A stretch of 64,000 bases of DNA from Gammaproteobacteria bacterium (GTDB lineage Bacteria; Pseudomonadota; Gammaproteobacteria; Natronospirales; DASSBR01), in contig DASSJY010000002.1 in NCBI GenBank assembly GCA_035690945.1, forward strand, positions 19,182-83,181. Direction: 5' to 3'. Below the pieces are notes generated by a model. It did not search any database, was not told where the DNA came from, and saw only the letters and a program-made list of their open reading frames with translations. The position numbers and the translations under genes are program-made. Below are positions 2-43,236 of this stretch, one piece after another. Numbering within the stretch: position 1 is the stretch's first letter; every line of letters begins with the position of its first letter.

Positions 2-1384
<1,383 letters not shown>

Positions 1385-9520: not shown

Positions 9521-9541
9521 GCCGTCACTCCCATCTACAGA

Positions 9542-11962: not shown

Positions 11963-11978
11963 CGCAAGCACCTCGCTT

Positions 11979-15885: not shown

Positions 15886-15903
15886 CGAATGCCTCGGGAT
15901 CAG

Positions 15904-18351: not shown

Positions 18352-18361
18352 AGTCACCACC

Positions 18362-24727: not shown

Positions 24728-24734
24728 ATTGCTT

Positions 24735-27200
24735 TCATTGCTCCATAATCGCGACGGCCGGATCCAGCTTCGCCGCCCGGCGCGCAGGCAGGTAGCAAGC
24801 AGCCAGAGTGATGAGGCACAGCACGATTGCGCTAGCGATCAACGTCAATGGATCAAATGGCGCGACACCGAACAACTGTGCGCTTATCAAGTAGCCGCAC
24901 AGCACGGCCAGGCTCAACCCGATCACCAGGCCGACCACGAGCAACCTGAGCCCGTCCTTCAATACGAGCCGCTGCAAGTCCCCCGGCAGTGCCCCCAACG
25001 CCAGACGGACGCCGCACTCGGCGCGGCGCTGGCTGACAGCGTAGCTCATCACTGCATAGACGCCGACGATGGCAAGCGCAAGTGCAATGCCGCCGAAGGC
25101 GAGCAGTAATGTCATCGTCGTTTGTTTTTTGCTCAGCGAATCCGCAAATTGCTCGTGCATGGTGTGAATGTCGTACACCGCGATATTGGAATCCATGGCG
25201 GCGACGAGATCCTTAAGCGGTTTGACCAGCGCGTCGGGCGCCATCGCCGTGTGAATCACCCATGTCGTCACCCGGGGTGGACCTTGGTCGCCGGTGGAGT
25301 ACGCAGCGTTGAGGTAAATGGTGGTTGACGCCAGTGATGTCGACAGCTTCGAGTACTTGACTGATGGCACAACTCCGATAATGGTGAATTTCCGGTCATC
25401 CTTGTCACCTCCGAAATCGATCTGTTGGCCAATCGCATGGCCGTCGGCGAAATACTTTCGCGCGAGCCCCGCGTCAATGATCGCCGTCGGTTGCTTCGCA
25501 TCGCGCGCATCGAACTGTCGCCCGCGCAAAATGGGGATTCCGAGCGCCTTGAAATAGCCCTGACCGACGCGGTTGACCATCGCTCCGGGTGGTTTCGGCG
25601 GCGGCTTTCTACCGGGAATAGTAAATGCCGATATAGGCAACGACCCGCCCATCCGCCCGCCCATTAACGGTAGAATTTGAGCCATGGCGACCTCCCGCAC
25701 CCCCGGAAGCGCGTCCACACGCTGCGTCAGATCGTCATAAAATCCGGATAATGCCTTGCCGGGATGATCCTTCTCCGGCACCAGCAGGCTCGCCATCAGC
25801 ACATGATCCTTGCGAAAGCCGGGATTGACTGCCTCAAGGTTCATGAAGCTATGCAGCACCAGGCCGGCCATGGCCAGCAAGCCGGTCGCGAGCGCCAGTT
25901 CGCTGATCACAAGCGCGCTACGGATGCGCCTCGCGCGTCGGCCGACGCCACTCGTGCGACTGCCTTCCTGCAAGGTCATCTGCAGATCGGTTTTGGCCAA
26001 GTGGCGAATCGGCAGCACGCTGACCAAAGCGGCGGTGAGTAACACCATTCCCACAGCGAACAGGCCGACGCGCCAGTCGAGGGAGGCGCTGAACATGGCG
26101 CTACCGCTATCGAACGACGATCCCGCCACAAAGACCAAAGCCAACCAGCACAACGCTACGCCCGCGATGCCCCCCGGCACTGTCAGGCACAACGCTTCGC
26201 CCAACAGTTGCCGCGCCAGCACCGCTCGACTTGCTCCCAGCGTGCTGCGTATCGCGATTTCATGGCTGCGCCCAAGGATGCGAGATAACAGCAGGTTGGC
26301 GACATTAACGCAGGTCATCAGCAGAATTAGCAGCACCGCCCCTTGCAGCAACCACAAGGTTGCCGCGCGATCGCCCAGTAGAACATCGCGCCAGGGCCGG
26401 ACACCCATCGTAAATCCGGCGCCTTGGGCCAGTTTCCGGAGTTGAGCGGGCGCTTTATCCTGAATAAATGCGCCGATCGCGTGTTGAACCTGTACTTCTG
26501 CGGCTTCCCGGCCGACATCGGGCTTGAGTCTGTCTATGGATGCCACGTTGATCGCCATAGCGCGCATCGGGGCGAAGCTTTGCGGCGTAAGCCTGTACGG
26601 CAACCATAGCGACGTAGCGCGATCGGGAAAAGCAAAGTCTTGAGGCATAACACCGATAATCCGGTAAATGCCGTCGTCGAGTTGTACCGTTTTGCCGATG
26701 ACGCCGGGATCGGCGCCGAAACTGTCGTGCCACAGCTTATAGCTGATCACCGCCGCAAGATTACTGCCGGCATGCATATTGTCAGGCGTGAAGGTTTGAC
26801 CAAGCAGCGGCGACACGCCCAGGACGGAGAAAAGCGATGATGAGGCGTACACGCTGGATACTCGCGTGGCTCTGCCATTCACCTTGACGCTGGAGGTGCC
26901 TTGAACATAAAAGGCCATTTCCGCAAAGGCGTCAGTATTCTGTTCTATAGCCTGATAGAGCGGCAGAGATGTGCCGGGAAGCGGTTCGGCCCTGACCTTG
27001 GGAATGCTGCTGTACAGTTGTACCAACTGGCCGCCGTGCGGATACGGTAACGGTTTTAACAAGTAACCGCTCAAAAAGCTGAAGACTGCGGTATTGGCGC
27101 CGATGCCCAGCGCGAGCGTCAGAATCGCAGCGGCCGCGAAGCCGGGTTTGGCCGCGAGTTGGCGCAAACCGATGCGTAAGTCGTTGACAAAACCGTTCAT
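24735..27200 (-). CDS. duplicated-FtsX ABC permease, ADOP/MacB-type (paralog 3)
   Basis: 821 aa. N-terminus MNGFVNDLRIGLRQLAAKPGF. The first FtsX half is nearly identical to that of paralog 6 (LWLLQGAVLLILL.TCVNVANLLLSRILGRSHEIAIRSTLGASRAVLARQLLGEALCLTVPGG). Confidence 0.85.
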   Translation of the reverse strand: MNGFVNDLRIGLRQLAAKPGFAAAAILTLALGIGANTAVFSFLSGYLLKPLPYPHGGQLVQLYSSIPKVRAEPLPGTSLPLYQAIEQNTDAFAEMAFYVQGTSSVKVNGRATRVSSVYASSSLFSVLGVSPLLGQTFTPDNMHAGSNLAAVISYKLWHDSFGADPGVIGKTVQLDDGIYRIIGVMPQDFAFPDRATSLWLPYRLTPQSFAPMRAMAINVASIDRLKPDVGREAAEVQVQHAIGAFIQDKAPAQLRKLAQGAGFTMGVRPWRDVLLGDRAATLWLLQGAVLLILLMTCVNVANLLLSRILGRSHEIAIRSTLGASRAVLARQLLGEALCLTVPGGIAGVALCWLALVFVAGSSFDSGSAMFSASLDWRVGLFAVGMVLLTAALVSVLPIRHLAKTDLQMTLQEGSRTSGVGRRARRIRSALVISELALATGLLAMAGLVLHSFMNLEAVNPGFRKDHVLMASLLVPEKDHPGKALSGFYDDLTQRVDALPGVREVAMAQILPLMGGRMGGSLPISAFTIPGRKPPPKPPGAMVNRVGQGYFKALGIPILRGRQFDARDAKQPTAIIDAGLARKYFADGHAIGQQIDFGGDKDDRKFTIIGVVPSVKYSKLSTSLASTTIYLNAAYSTGDQGPPRVTTWVIHTAMAPDALVKPLKDLVAAMDSNIAVYDIHTMHEQFADSLSKKQTTMTLLLAFGGIALALAIVGVYAVMSYAVSQRRAECGVRLALGALPGDLQRLVLKDGLRLLVVGLVIGLSLAVLCGYLISAQLFGVAPFDPLTLIASAIVLCLITLAACYLPARRAAKLDPAVAIMEQ

Positions 27201-27212
27201 GTCTCTCTCTTT

Positions 27213-29666
27213 TTATTGGTCCATCATCGCGACGGCCGGATCGAGCTTCGCGGCACGGCGTGCCGGCAGCCAGCAGGCCATCAGCGTAATCGCACACAAC
27301 ATCAATGCGCTGCCAATCAGCGTCAGCGGATCAAACGGTACAACGCCGAACAACTGCGACGAAATCAGGAAGCCGCATAACACGGCGAGGCCAAGGCCGA
27401 GAACAAGGCCGACCGCAAGCAGCTTCAAACCATCCTTCAATATCAACCATTGCAAATCGCCCGGCAGCGCGCCAAACGCCAAACGAACGCCGCATTCCGC
27501 GCGACGCTGTCCCACGGCGTAACTCATCACGGCATACACGCCGACAATCGCAAGCGCCAACGCAATCCCACCAAACGCGAGCAGCAAAGTCATCGTTGTC
27601 TGGTTATCGTTCAGCGAATCCAGCAATTGCGCGCGCATGGTGTGGATGTCGGCAACGGCGACATTCGGCGCTATCGTGGCCAGCAGGTTTTGTACCGGCT
27701 TGATGAGCGCAGCTGGTGGCAGCTTGGTGTGGATGACAAGATACATATCGGGCGTCACACTGTATTTGCCGATGTCGATGTAAACGGCGGCCGACAGTTT
27801 GGGCTGCGACAATCTCGTGTATTTGACCGGCGGCACAACGCCGACAATGGTGTATATCTGTTTGGCGCCATAGTCGATCTTTTGCCCGATCGGGTTCACA
27901 CCGCGGAAATACTTTTTGGCCACGCGGGCATCGACGATCGCATGCATCTTGCCCGCATCGCGTTCATCGAAGCGTCGCCCGCGTAAAATCGGAATGCCGA
28001 GCGTTTTGAAATACCCTGGACTGATAAAATCCTGGATAGCCCCCGGCGACTCGCCCGAAGGCTGCGGTGGCCGGCCGGGAATGGTGAAGCCGTTGAAAAT
28101 TGCCATATTGCTCATCGGCACGGAAGCGGTAATCCCGGATTGCCAAACTCCAGGCAGTCCATCCACGCGCTTCACCACGTTGTTGTAAAACTGGCTCATC
28201 GCTTTGTCGTGCAAATAATCCTTGGGCGACAACAGAAGCTGCGCGATCAATACATGGTCCTTGCGAAAACCGGGATCGACGGCTTCAAGATTCATAAAGC
28301 TGTGCAGCACCAGGCCAGCCATTGCAAGCAAGCCGGTCGCGAGCGACAGTTCGGCAATAACGAGCGTATTGCGGACGCGCTTTGCGCCGCGCCCCCCGGT
28401 GCTGCGGCTACCCTCCTGCAAAGCAGTTTGCAGATCAGTTTTGGCGAGTTGACGGATCGGTAAAACGCTAATCAAGGCCGCGGTGACCAGCGCCGCGCCA
28501 AGTGCAAACAACCCGACGCGCCAGTCAAGCGCGATGTCGAATATGCTGCTACCAACGCCGAGAGCCGAGCCCGCCAGAAAGTGCATGCCGAACCAGGCGA
28601 GACCGAAGCCGATCAAGCCACCGGGCACTGTCAGGCACAACGCCTCGCCAAGCAATTGTCGCGCCAGCGCGCCCCGGGTCGCGCCAAGCGTGCTGCGGAT
28701 CGCGATTTCATGGCCGCGACCGAGAATGCGCGACAGCAACAGGTTGGCAACATTGACGCAGGTGATCAGCAAAATCAGTAACACCGCGCCTTCCAGCAGC
28801 CATAACGTCGCGGGGCGGTTGCCGAGCAATCCCTGCCGGTACGATTGGGCGCGCATTGAAAACCCCATGCTCTTTAGCAGTTTCCGGTTGTACATGAGGT
28901 TGCCCACTTTGATGGGGAAATTATTGTCGGTCCATGTCTGAACTGCTTGCCGTACTTGCCGTTGCGCCGTCGCGATGCTGACGCCGGGTTTGAGCCAGCC
29001 AATAAATCGAGTATCGAGTGCCGATAGAAACCGCGTCGGATCGAAAGTTTTGGGAACGATCGGTTGCGGTAACCATATCGAGATGTCGTGGTCCGGGAAC
29101 GCGAAGCCGCGCGGCATCACGCCGACGATTCGATAATCCTCGCTTTCAATATTGACAGCCTTGCCGATGATGTTGGGGTCTGCGCCGAACGTAGTGCGCC
29201 AGAGCGAATAACTGATGACTACAACCTGGTCGCTGCCAGGCTTCATGTCGGCTTTGGTGAAGGTATGCCCGAGCATGGGCTGCACGCCGAGAACGCGAAA
29301 CAGCGACGCCGTAGTGATCAGCCCGCCGACGCGCTGCGCGCGTCTGGCGGCGTTCAGATTGAAATACTCGCGATGGTAAACGGCACCAGCGGCAAAGGCC
29401 TTGGTGTGCCTTTGAACGATTTGATACATCGGCATCGAGATACCGGAATCACCGCTGCTAAATTTTGGAAGCTCCGTGTTAAGTTGCGCCAGCCGGCCGG
29501 CGTGCGGGTACGGTAGCGGCTTGAACAGATAGCCGCTCAGAACGCTGAACACCGCCGTATTGGCGCCGATGCCAAGCGCCAGCGTGAGGATGGCCGCGGC
29601 GACAAATCCAGGCTTGGCTGTAAGTTGATGAATGCCAAAACGCAGGTCTGTGAGAAAGCCGTTCAT
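27213..29666 (-). CDS. duplicated-FtsX ABC permease, ADOP/MacB-type (paralog 2)
   Basis: 817 aa. N-terminus MNGFLTDLRFG. Collinear with paralogs 4 and 6 over the full length. Confidence 0.85.
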   Translation of the reverse strand: MNGFLTDLRFGIHQLTAKPGFVAAAILTLALGIGANTAVFSVLSGYLFKPLPYPHAGRLAQLNTELPKFSSGDSGISMPMYQIVQRHTKAFAAGAVYHREYFNLNAARRAQRVGGLITTASLFRVLGVQPMLGHTFTKADMKPGSDQVVVISYSLWRTTFGADPNIIGKAVNIESEDYRIVGVMPRGFAFPDHDISIWLPQPIVPKTFDPTRFLSALDTRFIGWLKPGVSIATAQRQVRQAVQTWTDNNFPIKVGNLMYNRKLLKSMGFSMRAQSYRQGLLGNRPATLWLLEGAVLLILLITCVNVANLLLSRILGRGHEIAIRSTLGATRGALARQLLGEALCLTVPGGLIGFGLAWFGMHFLAGSALGVGSSIFDIALDWRVGLFALGAALVTAALISVLPIRQLAKTDLQTALQEGSRSTGGRGAKRVRNTLVIAELSLATGLLAMAGLVLHSFMNLEAVDPGFRKDHVLIAQLLLSPKDYLHDKAMSQFYNNVVKRVDGLPGVWQSGITASVPMSNMAIFNGFTIPGRPPQPSGESPGAIQDFISPGYFKTLGIPILRGRRFDERDAGKMHAIVDARVAKKYFRGVNPIGQKIDYGAKQIYTIVGVVPPVKYTRLSQPKLSAAVYIDIGKYSVTPDMYLVIHTKLPPAALIKPVQNLLATIAPNVAVADIHTMRAQLLDSLNDNQTTMTLLLAFGGIALALAIVGVYAVMSYAVGQRRAECGVRLAFGALPGDLQWLILKDGLKLLAVGLVLGLGLAVLCGFLISSQLFGVVPFDPLTLIGSALMLCAITLMACWLPARRAAKLDPAVAMMDQ

Positions 29667-29713
29667 GTTGTATCTCTAGTCCCCTTAACGTCCGGGAGCG
29701 GGAAATGGAAAAG

Positions 29714-32155
29714 TCACTGCTCCACGATCGCTACGGCCGGGTCGAGCTTCGCAGCACGACGTGCCGGTAGATAACACGCGAGCAGCGTGATGACAGCCAT
29801 GACGATGGCGGTACCGGCCAACGTCAGCGGGTCGAACGGCGCGACACCGAACAGGCGCGCCGAGAGCAGGTACCCCATCACGACAGCGAGGGCCAGGCCC
29901 ACCACCAAGCCGACCGCGAGCAGCTTGAGCCCGTCCTTCAGCACCAGCCACAGCAGGTCCTCCGGCAGCGCGCCCAGGGCCAGGCGCACTCCGCACTCGG
30001 TGGTACGCTGACCGACGGCGTAGCTCATGACGCCGTAAACACCGATGATGGCGAGTGCCAGCGCGATTGCGCCAAATGCGAGGATCAGAATCATCAGCGA
30101 CTGGCGGCCTTGCAAGTTGTGCGCGATCAGGTCCTGCACCGATTCAAAGTCATTGGCGGTGGCGCCGGGAGCAACTTGCGCTACTGTGGCCTTGATCGCC
30201 TTGACCTGCGAATAAGGCGGCAGCGTGGTCTGGACCACGAGCGCAAGCGCCCCTCCCCGCTGCGCAAGCATCGCCAACCATTGGGCCGACTGGCTCACCG
30301 GGAAATAGGCGGTGCCCATGTTGTTCGCGCGGCTCAGTTGCTCGGCACGCATCGACGAAACAACACCGATGATCGTGGTTTTCGTATCGCCCATTTTCAG
30401 GGTGCGCCCGACAGGGTTTTTGCCGGGATACGCCTGTTGTGCCATGACGTCATCGATCACCATGACAGGCTGGCTGTGCGCGGTATCCTGCGCGTTGAAC
30501 AGCCGCCCGCGCAGCAGCCGCAGGCCAAGGGTTTTGAAATACCCGGTATCGGTGATATTCCACCAGGCGAATGGCGCATACTTCGGCCGCCCCGGGACTT
30601 CATAGCTGCCGTTGACCCCGTAGCTGAGCGGCAACTGCAACGCCACGCCCGCGCTTTCCACCCCCGGCACGGCATGGATTTGATCGAGCAATTGATGGTA
30701 AAAACTCGCCGCGGCCTCGCCCGACACCTGCGGCGGCGGCGCAACTTTGGCCGTCAAGACGTGGCTTGTGCGAAAACCGGGATTGATGCCGCTTAACTCA
30801 ATGAAACTGTGCATCAGCAGCCCGGCGCCGGCGAGAAGCGCGGCCGCCATAGCCATTTCAGCCACAGCCAGAACATTGCGAACGTGCCTGGCGCCGCGCC
30901 CACCGCCGATGCTGCGGCCGCCTTCCTGCAGAATGCCTTGCAGGTTGCCCCGACTGAAATGTCTGATGGGCAAGAGGCTGATTACAACCGCCACCAGGAG
31001 TACGACCCCAAACGTAAATACACCGACGCGCCAATCGGGGTTTATGGTGAAAATCTGCGATCCTCCGAGGCCCAGATTTTGTACGAAGCCGAGCGCCCAC
31101 CAGCCGAGTGCCATACCGGCGATGCCGCCGGGCACCGCCAGGCAAAGGCCTTCGATCAACAGTTGGCGTGCAAGGACTCCGCGAGTCGCGCCCAGCACGC
31201 TGCGCATGGCGAGTTCATGCGTGCGGCCGAGAATGCGTGCGAGCAAGAGGTTGGCGACATTGACGCAGGCGATCAAAAGAACCATCAGTACGGCCGCCTG
31301 CAGCAAGAACAGGGTCGAGTCTTCGTCGCCGACGAGCTTGTCGCGATACGGACGTGCGTTCCAGTCAAGGCCGACCTGGGCCTGCGACTGTTTCATTTCC
31401 GCGCTGGTATCGATTACCTGATCAAGAACCGCCGCTAGTCGTGCATTCGCCTGCTGCAGGCTCACGCCCGGCTTCAGTCGCGCAATCACCGGCGAATTCT
31501 GGTTGCGCCGAAACGCTTCCGATTTCATCTTCGCGGTCATCACGTACGGCGTCCACAGCCGCGCCAAACCGAAACCGATGTCGACATTCATGGTTCGTGG
31601 CATCACACCGATGATCGTGTACGGCTCCCCATTCAACTTGATGGACTGGCCGATCACGCTCCGGTCGGCGCCGAAGGTCTGTTGCCAGAAACTGTAGCTC
31701 AACACGACAACATGACCGCGCCCGGGCTGCTGCGCGGTACTGTCAAAGGTGCGCCCAAGCAGCGGTTTGACTCCGAGCACATCGAATAACGACGCCGTCG
31801 CCATCGACGCATGTACCCGCTGCGTCTGACCGCCCGCCTGCACGGCGTAACTTCGCCACGTCCACGCGCCGATCGACGAAAACACGTCATGGGTGTTTTG
31901 CTTGATACTCAGATAGTTCGGCAGCGATAACGGAGCGTGCTGAATCCCCGGCTTGATTTGATGCTCGCTGACGTCTACCAGTTGCTCGCTGTGCGGGTAC
32001 GGCAGCGGCTTCAGCAGGTAGCCATTGAGCACGCTGAACACGGCTGTGTTGGCGCCGATGCCGAGCGCAAGCGTCAGGATCGCCGCAGCCGCGAAGCCGG
32101 GCTTCGATGCCAGCTGGCGCAGGCTGAACCGCAGGTCCGTTAACAGGCCGTTCAT
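29714..32155 (-). CDS. duplicated-FtsX ABC permease, ADOP/MacB-type (paralog 1)
   Basis: 813 aa. N-terminus MNGLLTDLRFSLRQLASKPGF. Two FtsX halves. Starts 18 nt after the ATPase stop. Confidence 0.85.
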   Translation of the reverse strand: MNGLLTDLRFSLRQLASKPGFAAAAILTLALGIGANTAVFSVLNGYLLKPLPYPHSEQLVDVSEHQIKPGIQHAPLSLPNYLSIKQNTHDVFSSIGAWTWRSYAVQAGGQTQRVHASMATASLFDVLGVKPLLGRTFDSTAQQPGRGHVVVLSYSFWQQTFGADRSVIGQSIKLNGEPYTIIGVMPRTMNVDIGFGLARLWTPYVMTAKMKSEAFRRNQNSPVIARLKPGVSLQQANARLAAVLDQVIDTSAEMKQSQAQVGLDWNARPYRDKLVGDEDSTLFLLQAAVLMVLLIACVNVANLLLARILGRTHELAMRSVLGATRGVLARQLLIEGLCLAVPGGIAGMALGWWALGFVQNLGLGGSQIFTINPDWRVGVFTFGVVLLVAVVISLLPIRHFSRGNLQGILQEGGRSIGGGRGARHVRNVLAVAEMAMAAALLAGAGLLMHSFIELSGINPGFRTSHVLTAKVAPPPQVSGEAAASFYHQLLDQIHAVPGVESAGVALQLPLSYGVNGSYEVPGRPKYAPFAWWNITDTGYFKTLGLRLLRGRLFNAQDTAHSQPVMVIDDVMAQQAYPGKNPVGRTLKMGDTKTTIIGVVSSMRAEQLSRANNMGTAYFPVSQSAQWLAMLAQRGGALALVVQTTLPPYSQVKAIKATVAQVAPGATANDFESVQDLIAHNLQGRQSLMILILAFGAIALALAIIGVYGVMSYAVGQRTTECGVRLALGALPEDLLWLVLKDGLKLLAVGLVVGLALAVVMGYLLSARLFGVAPFDPLTLAGTAIVMAVITLLACYLPARRAAKLDPAVAIVEQ

Positions 32156-32930: not shown

Positions 32931-34202
32931 TTACCCATGACTCAACTCGATTCGGTCGTACTGGCTCCATTGGGAGGTATCCGACACAATGACCTTGTCG
33001 CCTGGCTTGAGCCCGGCGACGACCTGTACGGCATTGGCCGACGTGCGGCCCAGTTCCACCTTGGTGCGCGTGGCGAGATCACTGCCCGGCACCAGCCGGA
33101 ACACGCTCAGCGTATCGCCCGCCTGCACGCCCGCCGGCCGATCCATGTAGAGCACGTTGTCGAGCTTCGCGAGCACGATTTCGCCCTGCACGTCCAACCC
33201 GCTGCGCAAGTCCTTGGGCGGGTCTCCGACCGGCGCGACATCGATTTCGACGGTGCCGTTCTCCACCGTCGGATTGACGCGAATGACCTTGCCGGTGAAC
33301 GTGCTGTTGGCGCCGCCGAACGCGGTCAGCATCACGTGTTGACCGATCGCGATCGCCCCCGCTTGCGATTCGGCGACCTGCAACTTGGCCATCAGGTTGT
33401 TCTGCTGCGCGATGCGCGCTATGTCCGCGCCAACCGCCAGGTGCTGACCGTCCTGTATTGCGACCTGCGTGACGATGCCGGTCATGCCGGCCTTGACGTG
33501 CAGATTTTCGAGGTCGTACTGGCGCGCGACGAGATCGGCCTCAAGCTGCGCAACTTCCGCCTGCTTCGCGTTCACCTGCGCCTCAAGGCTTGCCTTGAAT
33601 TGCTGAATGCGCTGTTTGTCGGAAGCGACCTTCTGCTTGAGCTGCTCCGCCTTCGCAATCGTCTGCCGGTAATCCAGCTCGGAAATGATGTGTTCCTTGA
33701 CGACCTGCGCCTGCGCTTTCTTCTGAAACTGCGCGACCTGGTAATTGCTTTCGTCCTGCGCCAGCGTATTCTCGAGGTCGAGCAACTGGCTTTGAAGTTG
33801 CGCCTTCAGCGATGCGAGGTCCGCCTTGCCGGTTGCCACTTTCGTTTTCGCCTGCGCGACCGCCTGCACCACTTCAGGGTTGTGCATGACGGCCAGCACC
33901 GTGTCCGGTTCCGCGTGGTCGCCCGGCCGCACCAGGCGCTTCTCGACCACGCCGACGGCAGGCGCGGTGACCCATTGGATAACGCGCGGCGTCAAAACGC
34001 CCGACGCCTGCACGGTGATTGTGAGCGGGCCCTGCTTGACAGTACTGACCAGCACCGACGAGCGTGGCACGCTCGGCGCTGCAGGCTTGAGAAACGCCAC
34101 CAGCACGATGGCGGCTATGACGACGGCGGCGACGGAACCGATCAGCGCAAAGCGCTTGCGCTGGCGTTTGCGGCGATGTTCGGCGGAACGGGGCTTGTCC
34201 AT
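32931..34202 (-). CDS. HlyD/MacA-type periplasmic adaptor (membrane fusion protein)
   Basis: N-terminal basic segment plus TM helix (RKRFALIGSVAAVVIAAIVLVAFL), a long coiled-coil region (KADLASLKAQLQSQLLDLENTLAQDESNY...) and a C-terminal beta-barrel-like part. I chose the ATG at 34202 (AGAGGA upstream). The ORF-track TTG at 34238 directly abuts the sigma54 promoter and cannot be the start. Confidence 0.85.
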   Translation of the reverse strand: MDKPRSAEHRRKRQRKRFALIGSVAAVVIAAIVLVAFLKPAAPSVPRSSVLVSTVKQGPLTITVQASGVLTPRVIQWVTAPAVGVVEKRLVRPGDHAEPDTVLAVMHNPEVVQAVAQAKTKVATGKADLASLKAQLQSQLLDLENTLAQDESNYQVAQFQKKAQAQVVKEHIISELDYRQTIAKAEQLKQKVASDKQRIQQFKASLEAQVNAKQAEVAQLEADLVARQYDLENLHVKAGMTGIVTQVAIQDGQHLAVGADIARIAQQNNLMAKLQVAESQAGAIAIGQHVMLTAFGGANSTFTGKVIRVNPTVENGTVEIDVAPVGDPPKDLRSGLDVQGEIVLAKLDNVLYMDRPAGVQAGDTLSVFRLVPGSDLATRTKVELGRTSANAVQVVAGLKPGDKVIVSDTSQWSQYDRIELSHG

Positions 34203-34238
34203 GAAATCCTCTGGTTGCGGGTTATACCGTATACGCAA

Positions 34239-34253
34239 GCAAAATCCGTGCCA
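34239..34253 (-). promoter_or_regulatory. sigma54 (-24/-12) promoter P1 of the adaptor-ATPase-permease operon
   Basis: The - strand reads TGGCAC-GGATT-TTGC, a full match to the TGGCAC-N5-TTGC consensus. The predicted transcription start lies about 25 nt upstream of the adaptor ATG. Confidence 0.75.
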
Positions 34254-34272
34254 GACAGAACTTGTCTATAAA

Positions 34273-34285
34273 TATCAATCTGTTG
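34273..34285. promoter_or_regulatory. candidate IHF site between UAS1 and P1
   Basis: TATCAATCTGTTG matches WATCAANNNNTTR. It lies inside an AT-rich stretch between the palindrome and the -24 element. Confidence 0.4.
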
Positions 34286-34320
34286 CACTTACTTATTAAG
34301 GTAAACGTTGATCTACGGCT

Positions 34321-34355
34321 GTTCGATTATGGGACGCCACGTCCCATAATCGAAC
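34321..34355. promoter_or_regulatory. UAS1: perfect 16-bp-arm palindrome, candidate enhancer-binding-protein site
   Basis: GTTCGATTATGGGACG-cca-CGTCCCATAATCGAAC, with perfect arms. Its centre is about 86 bp upstream of the P1 -24 GG. Confidence 0.6.
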
Positions 34356-34391
34356 GATTGAAGCACCGGACCGGACGGCAAAGTAACGTAT

Positions 34392-34622
34392 CTACCATGA
34401 ATGGATTCGCCCGTATGACAGAAGCGAACCCGGCTCGCCGCAGTGGCGGGCCATTCTTTTCCGGCCTTCAGCACACGGAAGATTTTCGCGCCGATCCGCT
34501 GCCGATACGCCTATGTCAGGTAGCTCAAAGCGGCGGGGCGCGCCGTCGTTGCCGCAGGCGATGAGTTGTTTCCTACGCGAGCCTGCAATTCCGGGCGTAG
34601 GCACACGCAATAGTCCGTTCAT
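34392..34622 (-). CDS. candidate small ORF (76 aa) downstream of sigma54 promoter P2; it could instead be a non-coding leader or sRNA
   Basis: The ATG is preceded by GGAGA 7 nt upstream and lies about 55 nt from the predicted P2 transcription start. No recognisable family, signal peptide or TM segment. Three Cys. Codon usage is poorer than neighbouring genes, with several rare codons (CTA, ATA, AGA, AGG). Confidence 0.3.
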   Translation of the reverse strand: MNGLLRVPTPGIAGSRRKQLIACGNDGAPRRFELPDIGVSAADRRENLPCAEGRKRMARHCGEPGSLLSYGRIHSW

Positions 34623-34688
34623 GTCACTGTCTCCGAATTACGTTTAACATCGATCCACTTCAAAAGCGGACCTCCTGCATTTAATCAA

Positions 34689-34703
34689 GCAAATTACGTG
34701 CCA
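34689..34703 (-). promoter_or_regulatory. sigma54 (-24/-12) promoter P2
   Basis: The - strand reads TGGCAC-GTAAT-TTGC, a second full consensus match, 450 bp upstream of P1. Confidence 0.65.
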
Positions 34704-34767
34704 GTACTGGTGTTGGATGTATTTCAAGCACTTAGCGTTTAGTTGCCCTGCATAAGGCGGTAACATT

Positions 34768-34802
34768 TATCGATTCCGGGACGACGCGTTCCATAATCGA
34801 AG
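34768..34802. promoter_or_regulatory. UAS2: imperfect copy of the UAS1 palindrome
   Basis: TATCGATTCCGGGACG-acg-CGTTCCATAATCGAAG matches UAS1 at 12/16 and 14/16 arm positions with the same 3-bp spacer. Its centre is about 84 bp upstream of the P2 -24 GG. It lies just upstream of the divergent regulator gene. Confidence 0.5.
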
Positions 34803-34844
34803 ATCGTGTACCATGCGGCAGCATCGAAAGCGCATCATTTCCCC

Positions 34845-36212
34845 ATGACCCAGCCCAACATTCTTATCGCCGACGACAAGCAGCACATCCTCGATAGCCT
34901 GCGGCTGCTGCTGAAAAACGAGAACCTGCGCCCGCTTTGCGTACAGTCGCCGGCCGCGGCGCTCGAAGCGTTGGGTGCGCAGGTGTTCGACGCTGCCCTG
35001 ATCGACCTCAACTACACCCGGGACACCACCTCCGGCGCCGAGGGGTTGGAACTGCTACAGGCTCTGCATCGTCTCGACGACTGTCTTCCGGTCATCGTCA
35101 TGACCGCCTGGGGCAGCGTCGAACTGGCCGTCGAGGCCATGCGCCAGGGCGCAGCGGATTTCATTGAGAAGCCGTGGGACGATGCGCGCCTGCTCAGCGT
35201 GCTGCGTAACCAGATTGCGCTGGCGCGCGCGCTCAAACAGGGCCGCCGGTTGAACGCGGAAAACGCCGCACTGCGCGAACGCCGTCCGATTGACTTCATC
35301 GCCGAGTCGCCGGCCATGCGGGAAGTCATGCGGCTCGCCGACCAAGTGGCATCCGCTGATGCGGGCGTGCTGATCACCGGCGAGAACGGCACGGGCAAAG
35401 GTGTGCTGGCGCGGCACATTCACGATCTGTCCGCGCGCGCCGGGCAGCCGTTCATTCGCGTCAATCTCGGCGGGCTGGCGGAGTCGCTGTTCGAAAGCGA
35501 GTTGTTCGGCCACGTCAAGGGTGCGTTCACCGATGCCAAGTCCGATCGCATCGGCCGCTTCGAACTGGCCGACGGCGGCACGTTGTTTCTGGATGAAATC
35601 GGCAACCTGACGATGGAGCAGCAGGCGCGGTTGCTGCACGTGCTGGAGGAAGGCGAATTCGAACGCGTTGGCGCTTCGCGGCCGATCCGGGTCGATGTGC
35701 GTATCGTGTCCGCAACGAACGTCGATCTGCAAAGAGCCATAGGCTCCGGGCACTTCCGCAAGGATTTGTATTACCGGCTCAACACGGTACGCATCGAATT
35801 GCCGCCGCTGCGTGACCGCCCGCAGGACATCGAACCGCTGACCATGCAGTTCCTGGCACACAACGCACAACGCTACGGCAAGAGCATTTTCGGTCTTGCC
35901 CCCGAGGCCGCCGCCGCGCTCGCCCGCTACCCATGGCCGGGCAACGTGCGCGAACTGCAGCACGTGATGGAACGCGCGGTGCTGCTCGCCCAGGACAATG
36001 TTTTGACGGCGCAGGATCTACGGCTGGAAACCGCCGACGCGATCGGCGACGCCGCCGGATTGGAATACATGACGCTCGCCGACGCCGAGCAGCATTTGAT
36101 TCGCACCGCACTGGATCGCTGCGGCGGCAGCACCAATGAAGCGGCTGCGATGCTCGGCGTGAGTCGCAGCGCTCTGTATCGACGGTTGCAGCGGTATGGC
36201 ATCGGCGATTAG
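34845..36212 (+). CDS. sigma54-dependent response regulator (NtrC family enhancer-binding protein)
   Basis: The REC domain has ILIADD and the phosphoacceptor context AALIDLNY. The AAA+ domain has Walker A GENGTGKG, the sigma54-contact loop as GAFTDA, and RVGASRPIRVDVRIVSATN. A C-terminal Fis-type HTH is present (AAAMLGVSRSALYRRLQRYGI). I prefer the ATG at 34845; the GTG at 34806 is the ORF-track alternative. Confidence 0.9.
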   Translation: MTQPNILIADDKQHILDSLRLLLKNENLRPLCVQSPAAALEALGAQVFDAALIDLNYTRDTTSGAEGLELLQALHRLDDCLPVIVMTAWGSVELAVEAMRQGAADFIEKPWDDARLLSVLRNQIALARALKQGRRLNAENAALRERRPIDFIAESPAMREVMRLADQVASADAGVLITGENGTGKGVLARHIHDLSARAGQPFIRVNLGGLAESLFESELFGHVKGAFTDAKSDRIGRFELADGGTLFLDEIGNLTMEQQARLLHVLEEGEFERVGASRPIRVDVRIVSATNVDLQRAIGSGHFRKDLYYRLNTVRIELPPLRDRPQDIEPLTMQFLAHNAQRYGKSIFGLAPEAAAALARYPWPGNVRELQHVMERAVLLAQDNVLTAQDLRLETADAIGDAAGLEYMTLADAEQHLIRTALDRCGGSTNEAAAMLGVSRSALYRRLQRYGIGD

Positions 36213-37563
36213 TCACCATGCCGGAGCGCGAAAACGCGGGACTCGAGCGCGGCGGCCGCGTTCGTTCGAGACGCGTCTCGCGCTGTGGATACTGGTCGCC
36301 GCCCTGCCCGCCCTGCTCGGCTTCGCCATTCTGTTATGGCGCGTCGATGCCCCGCCACCGGCCTGGATCGCCTTCGCGCTGACGTTCTGCTGGCCGCTGG
36401 CGGTCGCACTTCGTGGGCGCCATCGCTTCACTTATGCGCTGCGCACGCTCACCAACCTGATGGAATCGCTCAAGGAAGGCAGCTACACGCTGCGCGGCAC
36501 GCATGCGCACAAGCCGGGCGTGCTGGGCGAGGTGACGGACCATCTCAACGCGCTCGCGGCCAGCCTGCAAGGCGAGCGTGTCGCATCGCAGGAAGCCGGG
36601 GCGCTGTTGAGCAAGGTGGTGGATGAAGTCGATATCGCGGTGCTCACGTTCGACGATCTGGAACGGCTGACGTTCATCAATCCGGCCGGCGAGCATCTGC
36701 TCGGGGAAGACCGCAAAGCGCTGATGCACCGCCCTGCGGCGGCGCTGCAACTAAGCTCGCTGCTGCGCGGGCCGCAGGCAGCGACGGTGCAGCGCGCCTT
36801 TCCCGGGGGCGCCGGGCCGTGGGATATTCGCCGACGGATATTCCGGCAGGAAGGTCACCGCCGTCACCTGCTCGTCATGACGGACGTCAGCCGCGCATTG
36901 CGCGAGGAAGAACGGCACGCGTGGCATCAGCTGATTCGCGTGCTGGGCCACGAGATCAACAACTCCCTGGCGCCGATTCGCAGCACCGCCTCGACACTCG
37001 CACGTCTCGCACAAAAGGAACCGCTGCCGGAAGACTGGCGTGATGACATGGCAGAGGGCCTGGATCTGGTGGGCAAACGGGCCGAGTCGCTACGTCGCTT
37101 CATGCGCGCCTACACAATGCTGGCGCGGCTGCCACCGCCAAAGAAGCGGCGCCTGCGGCTCGCACCCCTGATTGCGCGCGTGGCAGCGTTCGATCCGCGG
37201 CGGCGCGCAACGGTGTCGGCGGGACGTCCGCTGACGATAGAGGCGGATGCCGACCAGATCGAACAGGCGCTGATCAACCTTATCAAGAATGCGATCGATG
37301 CGACCGAGGAAGGCGGCGGCGCGGTGACGATTCAGTGGCGCGCAAAAGAGGGCGAGGCCGTAATCGAGGTGATCGACGACGGCCCCGGTCTCGCCGGCAG
37401 CCAGAATCTGTTCGTGCCGTTCTTCACAACCAAGCCGGGCGGCAGCGGGATCGGCCTGGCGCTGGGTCGGCAGATCGCCGAAGCGCACGGCGGCACCTTG
37501 ACCCTGGAAAACCGCCGGGATGCGTACGGCTGCGTAGCGCGGTTGTCGCTGCCTATTCAGTAG
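36196..37563 (+). CDS. sensor histidine kinase (NtrB/AtoS-like H-box) with minimal periplasmic loop
   Basis: Two N-terminal TM helices are separated by only RVDAPPP. H-box is LGHEINNSLAPI, N-box LINLIKNAIDA, G-boxes DDGPGL and GGSGIGLAL. Overlaps the regulator stop by 17 nt. Confidence 0.88.
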   Translation: MASAISHHAGARKRGTRARRPRSFETRLALWILVAALPALLGFAILLWRVDAPPPAWIAFALTFCWPLAVALRGRHRFTYALRTLTNLMESLKEGSYTLRGTHAHKPGVLGEVTDHLNALAASLQGERVASQEAGALLSKVVDEVDIAVLTFDDLERLTFINPAGEHLLGEDRKALMHRPAAALQLSSLLRGPQAATVQRAFPGGAGPWDIRRRIFRQEGHRRHLLVMTDVSRALREEERHAWHQLIRVLGHEINNSLAPIRSTASTLARLAQKEPLPEDWRDDMAEGLDLVGKRAESLRRFMRAYTMLARLPPPKKRRLRLAPLIARVAAFDPRRRATVSAGRPLTIEADADQIEQALINLIKNAIDATEEGGGAVTIQWRAKEGEAVIEVIDDGPGLAGSQNLFVPFFTTKPGGSGIGLALGRQIAEAHGGTLTLENRRDAYGCVARLSLPIQ

Positions 37564-40184: not shown

Positions 40185-40619
40185 ATGGCTGAGACCGAGC
40201 GCGAGCACTTCGGCGTGATCGTCGGCGAGCTGTCGCGGCTGTGGCGGCGCAAGCTGAATCAGCGCCTCAAACCGCTGGGTTTGAGCCAGGCAAAGTGGAT
40301 GGTCATCCTGCATCTCAGCCGTGTGCACGGCGGGATGGTTCAGCATGAACTTGCCGAGCGGCTGGCGATCGAGGCGCCGAGCCTCGCGCGCCTGCTCGAC
40401 CGCATGGCGACCGGCGGATGGATCGAGCGGCGCGAATCGCCGGAAGACCGGCGTTGCAAGACCGTCCACCTGACCCGCAAGGCACACTCCACCGCGCGCC
40501 GCATCGACGCCACTATCCGCGAGTTGCGGGAAGAACTGCTGGCCGATCTGACGCCTGACGACCTGGCCCATTGCCAGCGGGTGTTTCGGCTGATCGCCCA
40601 ACGGGCGGAAACGATCTAG
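40185..40619 (+). CDS. MarR family transcriptional regulator (EmrR-like position)
   Basis: 144 aa. Winged-HTH region LSQAKWMVILHLSR....VQHELAERLAIEAPSLARLLDRM, followed by RRESPEDRRCKTVHLT. It sits upstream of emrAB-like genes. Confidence 0.85.
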   Translation: MAETEREHFGVIVGELSRLWRRKLNQRLKPLGLSQAKWMVILHLSRVHGGMVQHELAERLAIEAPSLARLLDRMATGGWIERRESPEDRRCKTVHLTRKAHSTARRIDATIRELREELLADLTPDDLAHCQRVFRLIAQRAETI

Positions 40620-40667
40620 ATATGAGCAGGAGCGATCGCTCCTGCAATTGATTCTCAGGAGATATAC

Positions 40668-41684
40668 GTGCGCATTATCAAGTGGGCTGTTGCCATCGTC
40701 GTTGTCATTGCCATTGTCATCGGCGGCTATTTTTATTGGGAGCACTCGCAGCGTTATCCGAGCACGGACGACGCCTATATCGGCGCCCATGTTATCCATC
40801 CAGCGCCCGAGGTCTCCGGCGAGGTTGAAGCCGTCAATGTTCGCAACACCGAGCATGTCAACCAGGGCGACCTGCTGTTCAAGCTCGACCTGACGCCGTT
40901 CGAGCTGGCGGTCAAGCAGGCCAAGGCGCAACTCGAGCAGGCACGCGAAATGAACGCCGGCCTGAAGGCGGCAGTTGCCGCGGCACGCGCGGAAGTCGCC
41001 AATCGCGAAGCGCAGCTTGATAAAGCGAAGCTGGACGCCAAACGCACGCACAAGCTGGTCAAGAAAGGCTACCGCACAAAGGCCCAGGGGACCGACGTGC
41101 AGGCGGAGTTGAAGAGCGCCAAGGCCGCGCTCGCGCTCGCCAAGGCCAAGCTGAACCAGGCGGTGCAGCAACTGGGCCAGAAGGGTGAAGGCAACTATCG
41201 CGTCGTGCAGGCAAAGGCACAACTCGGCCTGCGCAAGTGGCAGCTCGCGCATGCGGTGGTTTATGCACCCTGCAGCGGTGAGGTCACCCAGGTGCAACTG
41301 CGCCCCGGCGATACCATCCAGCAGGGCCGCTCGCCGTTCGTGCTGGTGTGCGACAACAAGGTCTGGGTCGACGCCAATTACAAGGAAACCGATATTGCCG
41401 CCATTCATCCCGGCGACCAGGCAACCATCAGCGTCGATATGTACCCGAACAAGACGTTCCATGGCCGCGTGATCGGCATCAATCCGGCCGCGGGCACGGC
41501 GTTCTCGCTGCTGCCGCCGGAAAATGCCACGGGCAACTGGGTCAAGGTGACGCAGCGTGTACCGGTGCGCGTGCTGATTACGGATTCCGATCCGGCGCAC
41601 CCGCTGCGCGTCGGCACCAGTGCCGAAGTTACGATCGACACTCAGTCCGGGCCCGGCGAGCACAAGGTTGCCGACAACCGCTAA
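40668..41684 (+). CDS. emrA: HlyD family secretion protein, EmrA-like adaptor
   Basis: GTG start with AGGAG 7 nt upstream. N-terminal TM helix, the YPSTDDAYIGAHVI motif typical of EmrA, and a coiled coil. Confidence 0.8.
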   Translation: MRIIKWAVAIVVVIAIVIGGYFYWEHSQRYPSTDDAYIGAHVIHPAPEVSGEVEAVNVRNTEHVNQGDLLFKLDLTPFELAVKQAKAQLEQAREMNAGLKAAVAAARAEVANREAQLDKAKLDAKRTHKLVKKGYRTKAQGTDVQAELKSAKAALALAKAKLNQAVQQLGQKGEGNYRVVQAKAQLGLRKWQLAHAVVYAPCSGEVTQVQLRPGDTIQQGRSPFVLVCDNKVWVDANYKETDIAAIHPGDQATISVDMYPNKTFHGRVIGINPAAGTAFSLLPPENATGNWVKVTQRVPVRVLITDSDPAHPLRVGTSAEVTIDTQSGPGEHKVADNR

Positions 41685-41703
41685 GCGCCGGTAGCTGTAA
41701 ACA

Positions 41704-43236
41704 ATGCCAGCGCAAAAGCTCGGCTCGCGCTTCCTGATTACCGTCGCGGTGATGTCCGCGACGGTAATGCAGGTGCTCGACACCACGATCGTCAATGTTG
41801 CCCTGCCCCACATGCAGGGCGAACTGGGTGCGAACCCGGACCAGATCACCTGGGTCCTGACCAGCTACCTGGTCGCGTCCGGCATTTTCATGCCGCTGAC
41901 GGGTTACTTCACCGACCGGCTCGGCCAGAAGCGCTACCTGACGATCAGCATCACCGGCTTCGTCATCGCCTCGATGCTGTGCGGAATTTCGCAGACGCTG
42001 CCCGAAATCGTGCTCGCGCGCCTGCTGCAGGGCATGTTCGGCGCCGGCCTGTCGCCGATCTCGCAGTCGATCCTGATCAACACGTATCCACGCGAAAGCC
42101 GCGGCCGTGCGATGGCAATCTGGGGCCTCGGCATCATGGTCGGGCCGATTCTCGGTCCGACGCTCGGCGGCTGGTTGACCGAGATGTTCAACTGGCGCTG
42201 GACCTTTTATATCAATGTGCCGGTCAGCATCCTGTCGCTCGCGCTGACCTGGCTGGCGGTACCGGAAACCGAGCGCAAGAAGCGCACCACCGACTGGACC
42301 GGCCTCGCCCTGATCGCAATGGGCATCGGTTGCCTGCAATACGTGCTCGACCGCGGCAACCAGAAAAACTGGTTCGACTCAGGCTTGATCACCATTCTGG
42401 CGATTCTGTCGACCATCGGTTTCGTCGGCTTTATCTACCATAGCCTTCGCAACAAGCGACAGGCGCTGTTCGACCTGCGCATTTTCAAGGACCGCAATTT
42501 CGCCACCGCATCTCTGCTGATCACGGCCCTGGGACTGGCGATGTACGGCACCCTCGTTCTGCAGCCGCTGCTGCTTGAAGGCCTGCTCGGCTACCCCGTC
42601 CTGACGACTGGCATCGTGATGGCCCCGCGCGGTATCGCCAGCGCCATCAGCATGTTCATGGTGGGCAAGCTCATTACCCGCTTTGAGCCGCGCATCATGG
42701 TCGGCTTCGGTATCGTGCTGTCCACGCTTGGCACCTGGTTCATGACGCAGTACAACCTGCAGATCAATCTCTTCTGGGTGATCTTCCCGATCGTGATCCA
42801 GGGCTTCGGTATGGGGCTGATCTTCGTACCGCTCGCGACCGTCGCCTACTCGACCTTGCCCAATGAAAGTTCCGCCGAGGCCGCCGGCATGTTCAGCCTG
42901 GTACGCACAATCGGCTCGTCGGTCGGCATCGCGATCGTGGTGACGCTCCTGTCACGCCATACGCAGATCGCCTGGAACCAGCTCGGCGGCCACATCACCT
43001 CCAGCAACCCCGCGGTGTGGCATTTCCTCAGCCGGCTCGGCCTGTCGCCGGACTCGCCGGCGGCGGCCGGGGTCTTCGCAAAGCTGGTGGGCAGCCAGGC
43101 GCGTATGACCGGTTTTCTGGACGCATTCCTGGTCGTCTTTGTAAGCTTTATTTGCATGATTCCGCTGGTCGCGATCATGCGCCGTGTGAACCGGCCGCCG
43201 GGCGGCGGGCATGCCGCCGCGAGCGCGATGGAATAG
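41704..43236 (+). CDS. emrB: DHA2-family MFS efflux transporter, EmrB/QacA-like (14 TM)
   Basis: 510 aa. The motif VLDTTIVNVALPHMQGELGA and the overall DHA2 pattern are present. Confidence 0.85.
   Translation: MPAQKLGSRFLITVAVMSATVMQVLDTTIVNVALPHMQGELGANPDQITWVLTSYLVASGIFMPLTGYFTDRLGQKRYLTISITGFVIASMLCGISQTLPEIVLARLLQGMFGAGLSPISQSILINTYPRESRGRAMAIWGLGIMVGPILGPTLGGWLTEMFNWRWTFYINVPVSILSLALTWLAVPETERKKRTTDWTGLALIAMGIGCLQYVLDRGNQKNWFDSGLITILAILSTIGFVGFIYHSLRNKRQALFDLRIFKDRNFATASLLITALGLAMYGTLVLQPLLLEGLLGYPVLTTGIVMAPRGIASAISMFMVGKLITRFEPRIMVGFGIVLSTLGTWFMTQYNLQINLFWVIFPIVIQGFGMGLIFVPLATVAYSTLPNESSAEAAGMFSLVRTIGSSVGIAIVVTLLSRHTQIAWNQLGGHITSSNPAVWHFLSRLGLSPDSPAAAGVFAKLVGSQARMTGFLDAFLVVFVSFICMIPLVAIMRRVNRPPGGGHAAASAME

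Follow-up and report, generated by a model that had tools for sequence, protein, structure and literature searches.

Enhancer-dependent transcription from sigma-54 promoters is classically laid out as at glnAp2 and the nifH-type promoters, where an NtrC-type enhancer, a site for integration host factor (IHF) and the -24/-12 element follow one another, and in E. coli zraP and zraSR are arranged divergently. A coupling of an FtsX-family ABC transporter to a two-component system is found in the Bce modules of Firmicutes (BceRS-BceAB), which serve in peptide-antibiotic detoxification. We know of no function, partner or signal for the ADOP permeases, which are abundant in soil bacteria and owe the word 'orphan' in their name to the usual absence of an adjacent ATPase gene. 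Here we describe a locus in a 64,000-nt stretch of DNA from a member of the Gammaproteobacteria (assembly GCA_035690945.1, contig DASSJY010000002.1, positions 19,182 to 83,181; hereafter the window), in which a classical layout of this kind appears twice in tandem in front of an ADOP efflux operon. We suggest, with a probability of about 0.8, that the 643-bp intergenic region holds two tandem enhancer-dependent sigma-54 promoters on the minus strand, P1 and P2, each with its own palindromic upstream activating sequence (UAS) and IHF-like site, and that both are served by a divergently encoded enhancer-binding protein (EBP). The elements of the locus, including a small open reading frame (ORF) behind P2, are as follows, in window coordinates.

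34239..34253, minus strand: P1, sigma-54 -24/-12 element TGGCACGGATTTTGC
34273..34285, plus strand: IHF-like site of P1, TATCAATCTGTTG, an exact match to WATCAANNNNTTR, with its centre about 27 bp ahead of the -24 GG
34321..34355, no strand assigned: UAS1, perfect 16-N3-16 palindrome GTTCGATTATGGGACG-CCA-CGTCCCATAATCGAAC, presumed EBP enhancer for P1
34392..34622, minus strand: small ORF of 76 aa, MNGLLRVPT..., with Shine-Dalgarno GGAGA at 34630..34634; unannotated and fast-evolving
34689..34703, minus strand: P2, sigma-54 -24/-12 element TGGCACGTAATTTGC
34722..34734, plus strand: IHF-like site of P2, TTTCAAGCACTTA, differing from WATCAANNNNTTR at one base, with its centre about 26 bp ahead of the -24 GG
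34768..34802, no strand assigned: UAS2, degenerate 16-N3-16 palindrome, presumed to be the site from which the EBP activates P2; the EBP start codon follows 42 bp further on
34845..36212, plus strand: NtrC-family response-regulator EBP, 455 aa, with REC, sigma-54 AAA+, AAA-lid and HTH_8 domains (PF00072, PF00158, PF25601, PF02954)
36196..37563, plus strand: cognate histidine kinase, 455 aa, with HATPase_c, immediately downstream of the EBP gene

P1 and P2 are the only exact occurrences of TGGCAC-N5-TTGC in the window; both match all 10 specified bases, with 10 bp between GG and GC, and both fall within the same intergenic region. Two such matches compare with 0.18 expected by chance, and two or more were reached in only 2 of 100 shuffles. 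Matches with one mismatch, on the other hand, occur at chance frequency (6 found, 6.8 expected), so that it is the exactness and placement of the two elements that carry the evidence for promoters. P1 lies about 37 nt upstream of the Shine-Dalgarno-preceded ATG at 34202, the start of a gene for a membrane-fusion protein (MFP), and P2 about 67 nt upstream of the likewise preceded ATG of the small ORF at 34622. From these positions transcription would start near 34227, leaving about 25 nt to the start codon of the MFP gene, and near 34677, respectively.

The palindromes are composite elements of about 35 bp, built of outer TTCGATT and inner GGGAC half-elements. UAS2, the degenerate copy, has three mismatches across the 31-nt core, and the two palindromes are the sole matches to this core in the window, with no match in any shuffle, which corresponds to a chance expectation of zero. 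Scored with a 37-nt weight matrix derived from 18 sites, UAS1 reaches 52.5 bits and UAS2 42.8 bits, and the rest of the 64 kb stays below 14 bits. Measured from the palindrome centre, the -24 GG lies 86 bp away at P1 and 83 bp away at P2.

A first-pass annotation of this DNA had pointed out both promoters as exact consensus matches, UAS1 as a perfect palindrome with UAS2 as a degenerate copy with the same 3-bp spacer, and the IHF-consensus match at 34273..34285, all of which our reading of the window and the motif count bear out. Its distance for P1 (about 86 bp) also stands, and that for P2, given as about 84 bp, is corrected to 83 bp. It had overlooked the IHF-like site of P2, whose position equals that of the P1 site, and it made no statement on the genes driven by the promoters, which we take to be an efflux operon of about 27 kb for P1 and the small unannotated ORF for P2. 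Its description of the region as a duplicated module is right in that there are two modules. When these are aligned with each other, identity is seen at the palindrome, the -24/-12 element and the adjacent GCTTG only, and the spacers are dissimilar. With the likeness confined to the motifs, we reject a recent duplication of the DNA and, judging from this pattern of identity, regard P1 and P2 as two maintained modules.

To follow the palindrome beyond the window, the degenerate pattern TCGATTNNGGGAYNNNNNRTYCCNNNANCGRA was scanned in one genome per species (185,579 species) and in a metagenome collection. This yielded 17 stretches from each, and the palindrome, TGTTCGATTnnGGGAC-N5-GTCCCnnAATCGAACA, was found to recur in Gemmatimonadota, Acidobacteriota and Proteobacteria in the two public collections, with the consensus TGTTCGATTccGGGAC-N5-GTCCCggAATCGAACA. 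Three related gammaproteobacterial genomes carry it at this locus only, one locus per genome, and the remaining genomic matches are mostly from Gemmatimonadaceae/Gemmatimonadales (six) and Acidobacteriota (three), where they lie beside ADOP, MFP and ATPase genes. By tblastn, 22 of the 34 stretches (10 genomic and 12 metagenomic, from all three phyla) contain detectable counterparts of the EBP, the kinase, the MFP, the ATPase or the ADOP permeases, and three further stretches have adaptor- or TolC-like genes that we identified by eye. In two cases (L018 and L019) the palindrome directly follows an EBP-kinase pair that is 57-59% identical to that of the window, and among the metagenomic stretches with homologues the commonest order is EBP, kinase, palindrome, MFP, ATPase and ADOP. 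The genes behind the palindrome in the other phyla encode adaptors beginning MDI(x)RP..., ADOP permeases, or a signal-peptide protein that we take for an outer-membrane protein.

A GG-N10-GC element was found downstream of the palindromes, toward the efflux gene, and its distance from the palindrome centre falls into discrete classes: the gammaproteobacterial clade has 83-86 bp, most sites from Gemmatimonadota and Acidobacteriota have 92-94 bp (with a few that are weaker or out of register), and L011 and L038 have 106 bp. As the distances shift in steps of about 10.5 bp, one helical turn, as looping constraints predict, the comparison points to a dependence on the face of the helix, although this is comparative and not mutational evidence. 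We consider this helical-step spacing the strongest single argument that the palindrome would act as the enhancer of these promoters. The first-pass annotation had proposed a genome-wide search for the motif and had reasoned that its interpretation would fall if the palindrome were a dispersed repeat unrelated to sigma-54 promoters. Run on the public collections, the search found the palindrome non-dispersed and in the company of EBP and efflux genes, which strongly supports its reading as a conserved enhancer. The proposal that a classical layout of UAS, IHF site and -24/-12 element is served by the adjacent NtrC-family EBP is likewise strongly, if circumstantially, supported by the comparative evidence.

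Closer to the window, EBP homologues of 76-95% identity come from soil metagenome-assembled genomes (MAGs) labelled Gammaproteobacteria and from unlabelled read-archive (Logan) assemblies, and the close relatives of the locus are all uncultured. We compared nine distinct syntenic loci, six of them in a six-way alignment and three (L043, L044 and L047) separately. The order of the locus is the same in all nine: on the operon strand the ADOP array, ATPase, MFP, P1 with IHF-like site and UAS1, the small ORF, and P2 with IHF-like site and UAS2, and in the divergent direction the EBP and kinase genes. In the six-way alignment the columns without variation are those of the -24 GG and -12 GC at P1 and P2, of UAS1 and UAS2, of the IHF-like sites and of a block A..A..CCGTTCATG that covers the Shine-Dalgarno-proximal region and the ATG AAC GG of the small ORF, and between these blocks the spacers are diverged or unalignable. 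The same promoter, palindrome, IHF-like and small-ORF-start elements are present in the three separately checked loci, and IHF-like sites with no or one mismatch occur in 10 of the 14 promoter modules scored in relatives. Conserved blocks amid diverged spacers are, in an alignment, the pattern expected of functional cis-elements. We also note that the UAS2 equivalents of L004 (5870..5910), L012 and L047 have one additional base in the central spacer (GGGAC-GCGGCT-GTCCC); their half-sites are intact, and the weight matrix misses them.

The regulator belongs to an EBP family without a name: none of the named EBP equivalogs (AtoC, NtrC, ZraR, PrsR, GlrR and others) scores above its curated NCBIfam cut-off, the best being AtoC with 378 bits against a cut-off of 714. 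Its sigma-54 contact loop reads GAFTDA (HVKGAFTDAK, near 35520 on the plus strand) and not GAFTGA, as it does in all homologues that we examined across phyla except that of Frateuria (L025), which has GAYTDA. GAFTDA is a natural variant in Desulfovibrio EBPs and is among those expected to keep activity (PMC4641369). The two transmembrane helices of the kinase are connected by some 8 residues, so that a periplasmic sensor domain is absent, and a conserved HAMP-like segment (R..TLxNLxExLxEGxYxLR) follows them; a loop of about 6-10 residues and this segment are also found in L002, L004, L006, L025, L027 and L031.

Taken together, we propose that this kinase, itself without a periplasmic sensor domain, would phosphorylate the divergently encoded regulator, which would then bind the palindromes, oligomerise, reach the closed sigma-54 holoenzyme by an IHF-assisted loop and open both promoters. 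P1 would transcribe the genes for a MacAB-TolC-like tripartite ABC efflux system, whose content can be read directly and which probably form a single unit of about 27 kb. P2 would transcribe the small, rapidly evolving and presumably translated ORF, and its transcription may well run through UAS1 and P1 into the operon. At the same time, occupancy of UAS2 might, more speculatively, damp the regulator operon.

Several observations weigh against this proposal or narrow it. No rpoN gene is encoded in the window, where we looked for an RpoN box. EBP homologues of about 60% identity in the Xanthomonadales-like, cultured or near-cultured Frateuria (L025) and Chiayiivirga (L006) adjoin ADOP arrays and have no palindrome in the flanks that were retrieved, such that the pairing of motif and EBP may be limited to part of the family, or the promoters of these two loci may lie further off. 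The recognition helix of the HTH domain, SRSALYRRLQ, is also kept in homologues at loci without the palindrome, and we dropped the idea of deriving DNA specificity from this helix, which is too widely conserved to discriminate. Finally, the extent of the regulon is drawn from scanned collections that leave out the window's own genome. An EBP homologue is also found at an Acidobacteriota locus (L007) whose neighbouring genes are unrelated. At yet another locus (L005, 4950..5075) an ABC ATPase gene driven by TGGCACAGTGGTTGC precedes the gene of a more distant EBP homologue (P0010) and is divergent from a Yip1-MFP-ATPase-FtsX operon, and a different dyad, GTCCC-N6-GGGAC, is found about 100 bp upstream of the sigma-54 promoter; this may be a sister system with swapped half-site orientation.

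Between the end of UAS2 and the EBP start codon there are 42 bp, so that a promoter of the EBP operon must overlap or abut UAS2. The first-pass annotation had concluded from this proximity, and from a CATAAT within UAS2, that occupancy could also autoregulate the regulator operon. The proximity and the hexamer are both there, the latter in the right arm at 34792..34797, but CATAAT is not kept as a -10 hexamer in the relatives, which have CGTAAT, CATAAC and CGCAAC in its place. Directly downstream of UAS2 lies the block ATCGTGTACCAT (34803..34814, plus strand), which in the form ATCGTGTAC(C/T)AT, ending in TACCAT or TACTAT, is common to five of six relatives; it could hold the -10 element of the EBP-kinase operon, with the -35 element inside UAS2. 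A scan of the region for a sigma-70-type promoter gave none, which leaves the autoregulatory step without an identified target and counts against it, and reading the region by eye for a plus-strand GG-N10-GC element also gave none. In Gemmatimonadota the EBP-kinase pair is located upstream of the palindrome in the same orientation, and autoregulation can hence not be general to the system. The idea is plausible but no more than that, and from the arrangement of the sites we hold autoregulation of the EBP through UAS2 as a tentative proposal, somewhat more doubtful than not.

About 55 nt separate P2 from the GGAGA of the small ORF, which opens with the ATG at 34622 and ends 37 bp before UAS1. 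Its start is the same in all nine loci, with Shine-Dalgarno, ATG and M-N-[GE]-[FLI]-[FL], followed by x-x-P-[ST] except in L043. Near relatives differ from it at 17-27% of nucleotides, with no indel and the same stop position, a ratio of nonsynonymous to synonymous change (dN/dS) of 0.4-0.67 and a mild excess of third-position changes. At L043, where the EBP is 80% identical, a homologous ORF of 77 aa is 48% identical, with 26 invariant residues that include two Cys and the RRE and SLL..GR motifs; gene calling had picked it up, and its GC content at third codon positions is 0.76. Other subclades have the same start followed by unrelated bodies, namely another 77-aa version in L004, L012 and L047 and one of 66 aa in L002, and only about nine N-terminal residues are conserved across lineages. 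Given the base composition, the chance that independent bodies stay open over 66-179 codons is about 2e-4 for three lineages and about 3e-5 for four. A further ORF behind P2, of 179 aa and starting MNEFFCTPSL, is found at L044 (2146..2685, minus strand; EBP 76% identical); it has a hydrophobic, signal-peptide-like segment ending ANA-AAAP and is an orphan with no homologue outside its own cluster.

A good deal speaks against a protein product of consequence. In the window the codon usage of the small ORF scores -0.30 bits per codon, compared with +0.24 to +0.55 for real genes, and its GC content by codon position is flat (0.65/0.57/0.58 against about 0.68/0.43/0.78). AlphaFold gave no fold (pLDDT 42) and was uninformative. 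A word-indexed search of 5.8 billion proteins returned nothing, HMMER, run exhaustively on 1.84 billion representatives, recovered two clade-internal relatives only (L043 and L016), there was no match in Pfam or NCBIfam, and gene callers skipped the ORF in three MAGs. The product may thus be without importance. On the pattern of conservation we nevertheless lean slightly towards translation of the small ORF, which may encode a young accessory protein or be a leader whose translation matters. A precursor of a ribosomally synthesized and post-translationally modified peptide (RiPP) or of a bacteriocin was considered and rejected, as conservation covers no more than the nine or so N-terminal residues and the operon contains no radical-SAM, peptidase or cyclase gene.

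Alternatively, the whole second module, from UAS2 through P2 to the small ORF, could be the decaying relic of an enhancer-promoter that once stood before an ADOP gene, with the ORF as a functionless leftover of its 5' end. The first five codons of the small ORF do equal the N-termini of ADOP permeases (MNGLL or MNGFL), palindrome and promoter directly precede ADOP genes in Terriglobia and Gemmatimonadaceae, and the composition and lack of a predicted fold described above would suit a remnant. Decay should be even, however, and yet the -24/-12 element, IHF-like site, UAS2, Shine-Dalgarno and ATG are invariant in nine loci and the frame has stayed open in independent lineages. Past the first five residues there is no likeness to ADOP in any frame. 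We therefore think a relic quite unlikely. A frameshifted ADOP pseudogene in the strict sense was rejected for this same lack of likeness past MNGLL, and because there is no DNA likeness elsewhere in the window.

It could also be that the palindromes bind another regulator, for instance a repressor of the PadR type that is common beside ADOP genes, and that the sigma-54 promoters are activated from elsewhere. In a MAG of the Gemmatimonadaceae (L014, about 3100..3420, minus strand) the palindrome is flanked by an ADOP gene and, in divergent orientation, by a gene that looks PadR-like when its N-terminal sequence is inspected by eye, so the same ADOP promoters may there be a meeting point for two types of regulator. 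Besides this PadR-like gene directly beside the palindrome, the alternative can draw on several palindrome stretches in whose short retrieved DNA no EBP gene is seen. Where enough flank is available, however, the palindrome is found between an EBP-kinase pair and an MFP gene, or divergent from the EBP gene. The helically phased distances of 83, 93 and 106 bp to the -24/-12 element represent enhancer geometry, not operator geometry, and the gammaproteobacterial loci contain no PadR gene. We find a different regulator distinctly improbable and retain the divergent EBP as the probable ligand of the palindromes.

Other bacteria are known to make small RNAs under sigma-54 control, and P2 could in principle make such an RNA or a structured leader, the small ORF being incidental. 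The low conservation, from one subclade to another, of the protein sequence encoded in the transcript body would fit this. Behind P2 there is, however, no Rfam match at E<=1, RNA folding shows no excess structure over shuffled sequence (z of -0.10 and -0.24), and no terminator follows; furthermore, the conserved part is exactly the ribosome-binding site and start codon. We give a regulatory RNA very little credence. Since no intrinsic terminator is detectable on the minus strand between P2 and the MFP gene, transcription from P2 could read through into the efflux operon, for which we see about even chances. Weak hairpins are present on the plus strand only, at 34432-34452 and 34544-34564. The first of these (34432..34452, plus strand) is GC-rich, is followed by ATTCTTTTCC and lies antisense to the part of the small ORF coding for RHCGE; by eye it is conserved in L001, L016 and L043, and it could be a weak plus-strand terminator or a consequence of the conserved codons.

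That the matches are due to chance, or that the palindrome is a dispersed repeat of the repetitive extragenic palindrome (REP) type, is effectively refuted, for although promoter-like sequences with one mismatch do occur at chance frequency, the exact ones number 2 against 0.18 expected and share one intergenic region, and the palindrome has a chance expectation of zero in the window and is confined to a single locus per genome in three related genomes.

The genes that P1 would drive are arranged on the minus strand in transcriptional order as follows.

32931..34202, minus strand: membrane-fusion protein (periplasmic adaptor) of 423 aa, encoded by the gene nearest to P1 on its downstream side; TIGR01730 at 107.5 bits (cut-off 94.9), HlyD_D23 and HlyD_3; orthologues are called at 423 aa
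32174..32938, minus strand: ABC ATPase of the MacB/LolD/DarD type, 245 aa by the start called in orthologues
22283..32155, minus strand: four tandem ADOP duplicated FtsX/MacB_PCD permeases of 813, 817, 821 and 814 aa; TIGR03434 at 778-813 bits (cut-off 622)
20812..22272, minus strand: serine hydrolase of the AmpH-like/class C beta-lactamase family, 486 aa, inside the permease array; PF00144 at 2.6e-66
13420..20815, minus strand: three ADOP permeases of 817, 818 and 821 aa; TIGR03434
11979..13526, minus strand: TolC-family outer-membrane channel; PF02321, and TIGR01844 at 259 bits (cut-off 225); the gene truly starts further downstream than the ORF limit
7088..11971, minus strand: the last two ADOP permeases, 809 and 810 aa; the end of the operon, convergent with an aconitase gene

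From 7088 to 34202, about 27 kb on the minus strand, the genes overlap or are separated by 7-47 bp, from which a single transcription unit is inferred. All nine ADOP permeases (809-821 aa) score 778-824 bits against TIGR03434, with a cut-off of 622.3, and each has two MacB_PCD and two FtsX stretches in Pfam. The DarC/DarD and MacA/MacB equivalog models all score far under their cut-offs, and the AmpH and bla_class_C models stay under theirs on the 486-aa hydrolase. That nine ADOP paralogues share one ATPase, one MFP and one TolC is an unusual stoichiometry, given that the family was named for an absent partner ATPase. At L004 a nucleotidyltransferase/HepT-like toxin-antitoxin pair (192..835) is inserted between two ADOP genes on the opposite strand. 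A few kb from the sigma-54 locus of the window, at 40185..43236 on the plus strand, there is a second efflux system, a cluster of MarR, EmrA-like adaptor and MFS transporter genes that we assigned by synteny and by lengths (144, 338 and 510 aa) matching annotated genes of L001.

The motif and its spacing rule can be used for regulon finding in any genome, and the promoters lend themselves to reporter constructs for inducer screening, for which cell-envelope antibiotics are the obvious candidates. The promoter pair further offers a handle on why two tandem enhancer modules are kept. The nine ADOP permeases share an operon with an ATPase, an adaptor, a TolC protein and an AmpH-like hydrolase under what appears to be a dedicated sigma-54 two-component circuit. 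The regulatory logic is that of the textbook, and the value of the locus lies in a new regulon and the small ORF rather than in a new mechanism.

Compared with the NtrC-type systems and with zraP-zraSR, the locus is alike in having a dyad site about 80-110 bp from a GG-N10-GC element with an IHF-like site in between, a divergent neighbouring regulator of REC-AAA+-HTH_8 architecture, and one enhancer placed against the upstream region of the regulator itself. Unlike the NtrC-type layouts, it has a single composite palindrome of about 35 bp instead of two separate 17-bp dimer sites, two complete tandem modules on the same strand, an ABC efflux target and a GAFTDA loop. The operon resembles MacAB-TolC and the darobactin exporter DarBCD in its adaptor, its MacB/LolD-type ATPase, its permeases with MacB core and FtsX and its TolC protein, but here the ATPase is a separate polypeptide, and the permeases are internally duplicated ADOP proteins of about 810 aa, with nine paralogues per ATPase and adaptor. 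Predicted sigma-54 promoters have been reported to be enriched upstream of FtsX-like permeases of COG0577 in gamma-Proteobacteria, Opitutia and Bacteroidia, in what the authors call the first evidence of such a link (PLoS One 2025, PMC12316311); in the parts of that survey available to us the enrichment is given by COG only, with no mention of an activator, enhancer motif, spacing, tandem module, small ORF or operon type. Our literature search for this regulator, motif or system found no experimental paper on any of them.

By analogy, the locus also recalls the Bce modules, in that a two-helix kinase with a minimal extracellular loop is genetically coupled to an FtsX-family transporter. It differs from them in having a sigma-54 EBP and not an OmpR-type regulator, and in belonging to a Gram-negative bacterium with an adaptor and TolC, which makes this an analogy only and no claim of membership. 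Extending the analogy, one could imagine that the P2 product is a lineage-specific, fast-turnover small protein (66-179 aa) that has kept no more than an M-N-G-F/L-F/L tag in common with ADOP permeases and is induced through the same enhancer together with the pump, acting as a feedback connector on the kinase or EBP or as a leader that protects the read-through transcript, and that the whole unit is a sigma-54-wired Gram-negative counterpart of Bce; we regard this as unlikely. If true, it would provide the first function and inducing circuit for the 'orphan' ADOP permeases of Acidobacteriota, Gemmatimonadota and Proteobacteria. In conclusion, the comparisons across genomes make it a well-supported proposal that the locus represents a previously undescribed EBP regulon with a defined enhancer common to several phyla. 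What sets it apart from the ordinary systems to which it can be compared are its two tandem enhancer-promoter modules, its hypervariable small ORF with an ADOP-like N-terminus, and its nine ADOP paralogues on one ATPase and one adaptor.

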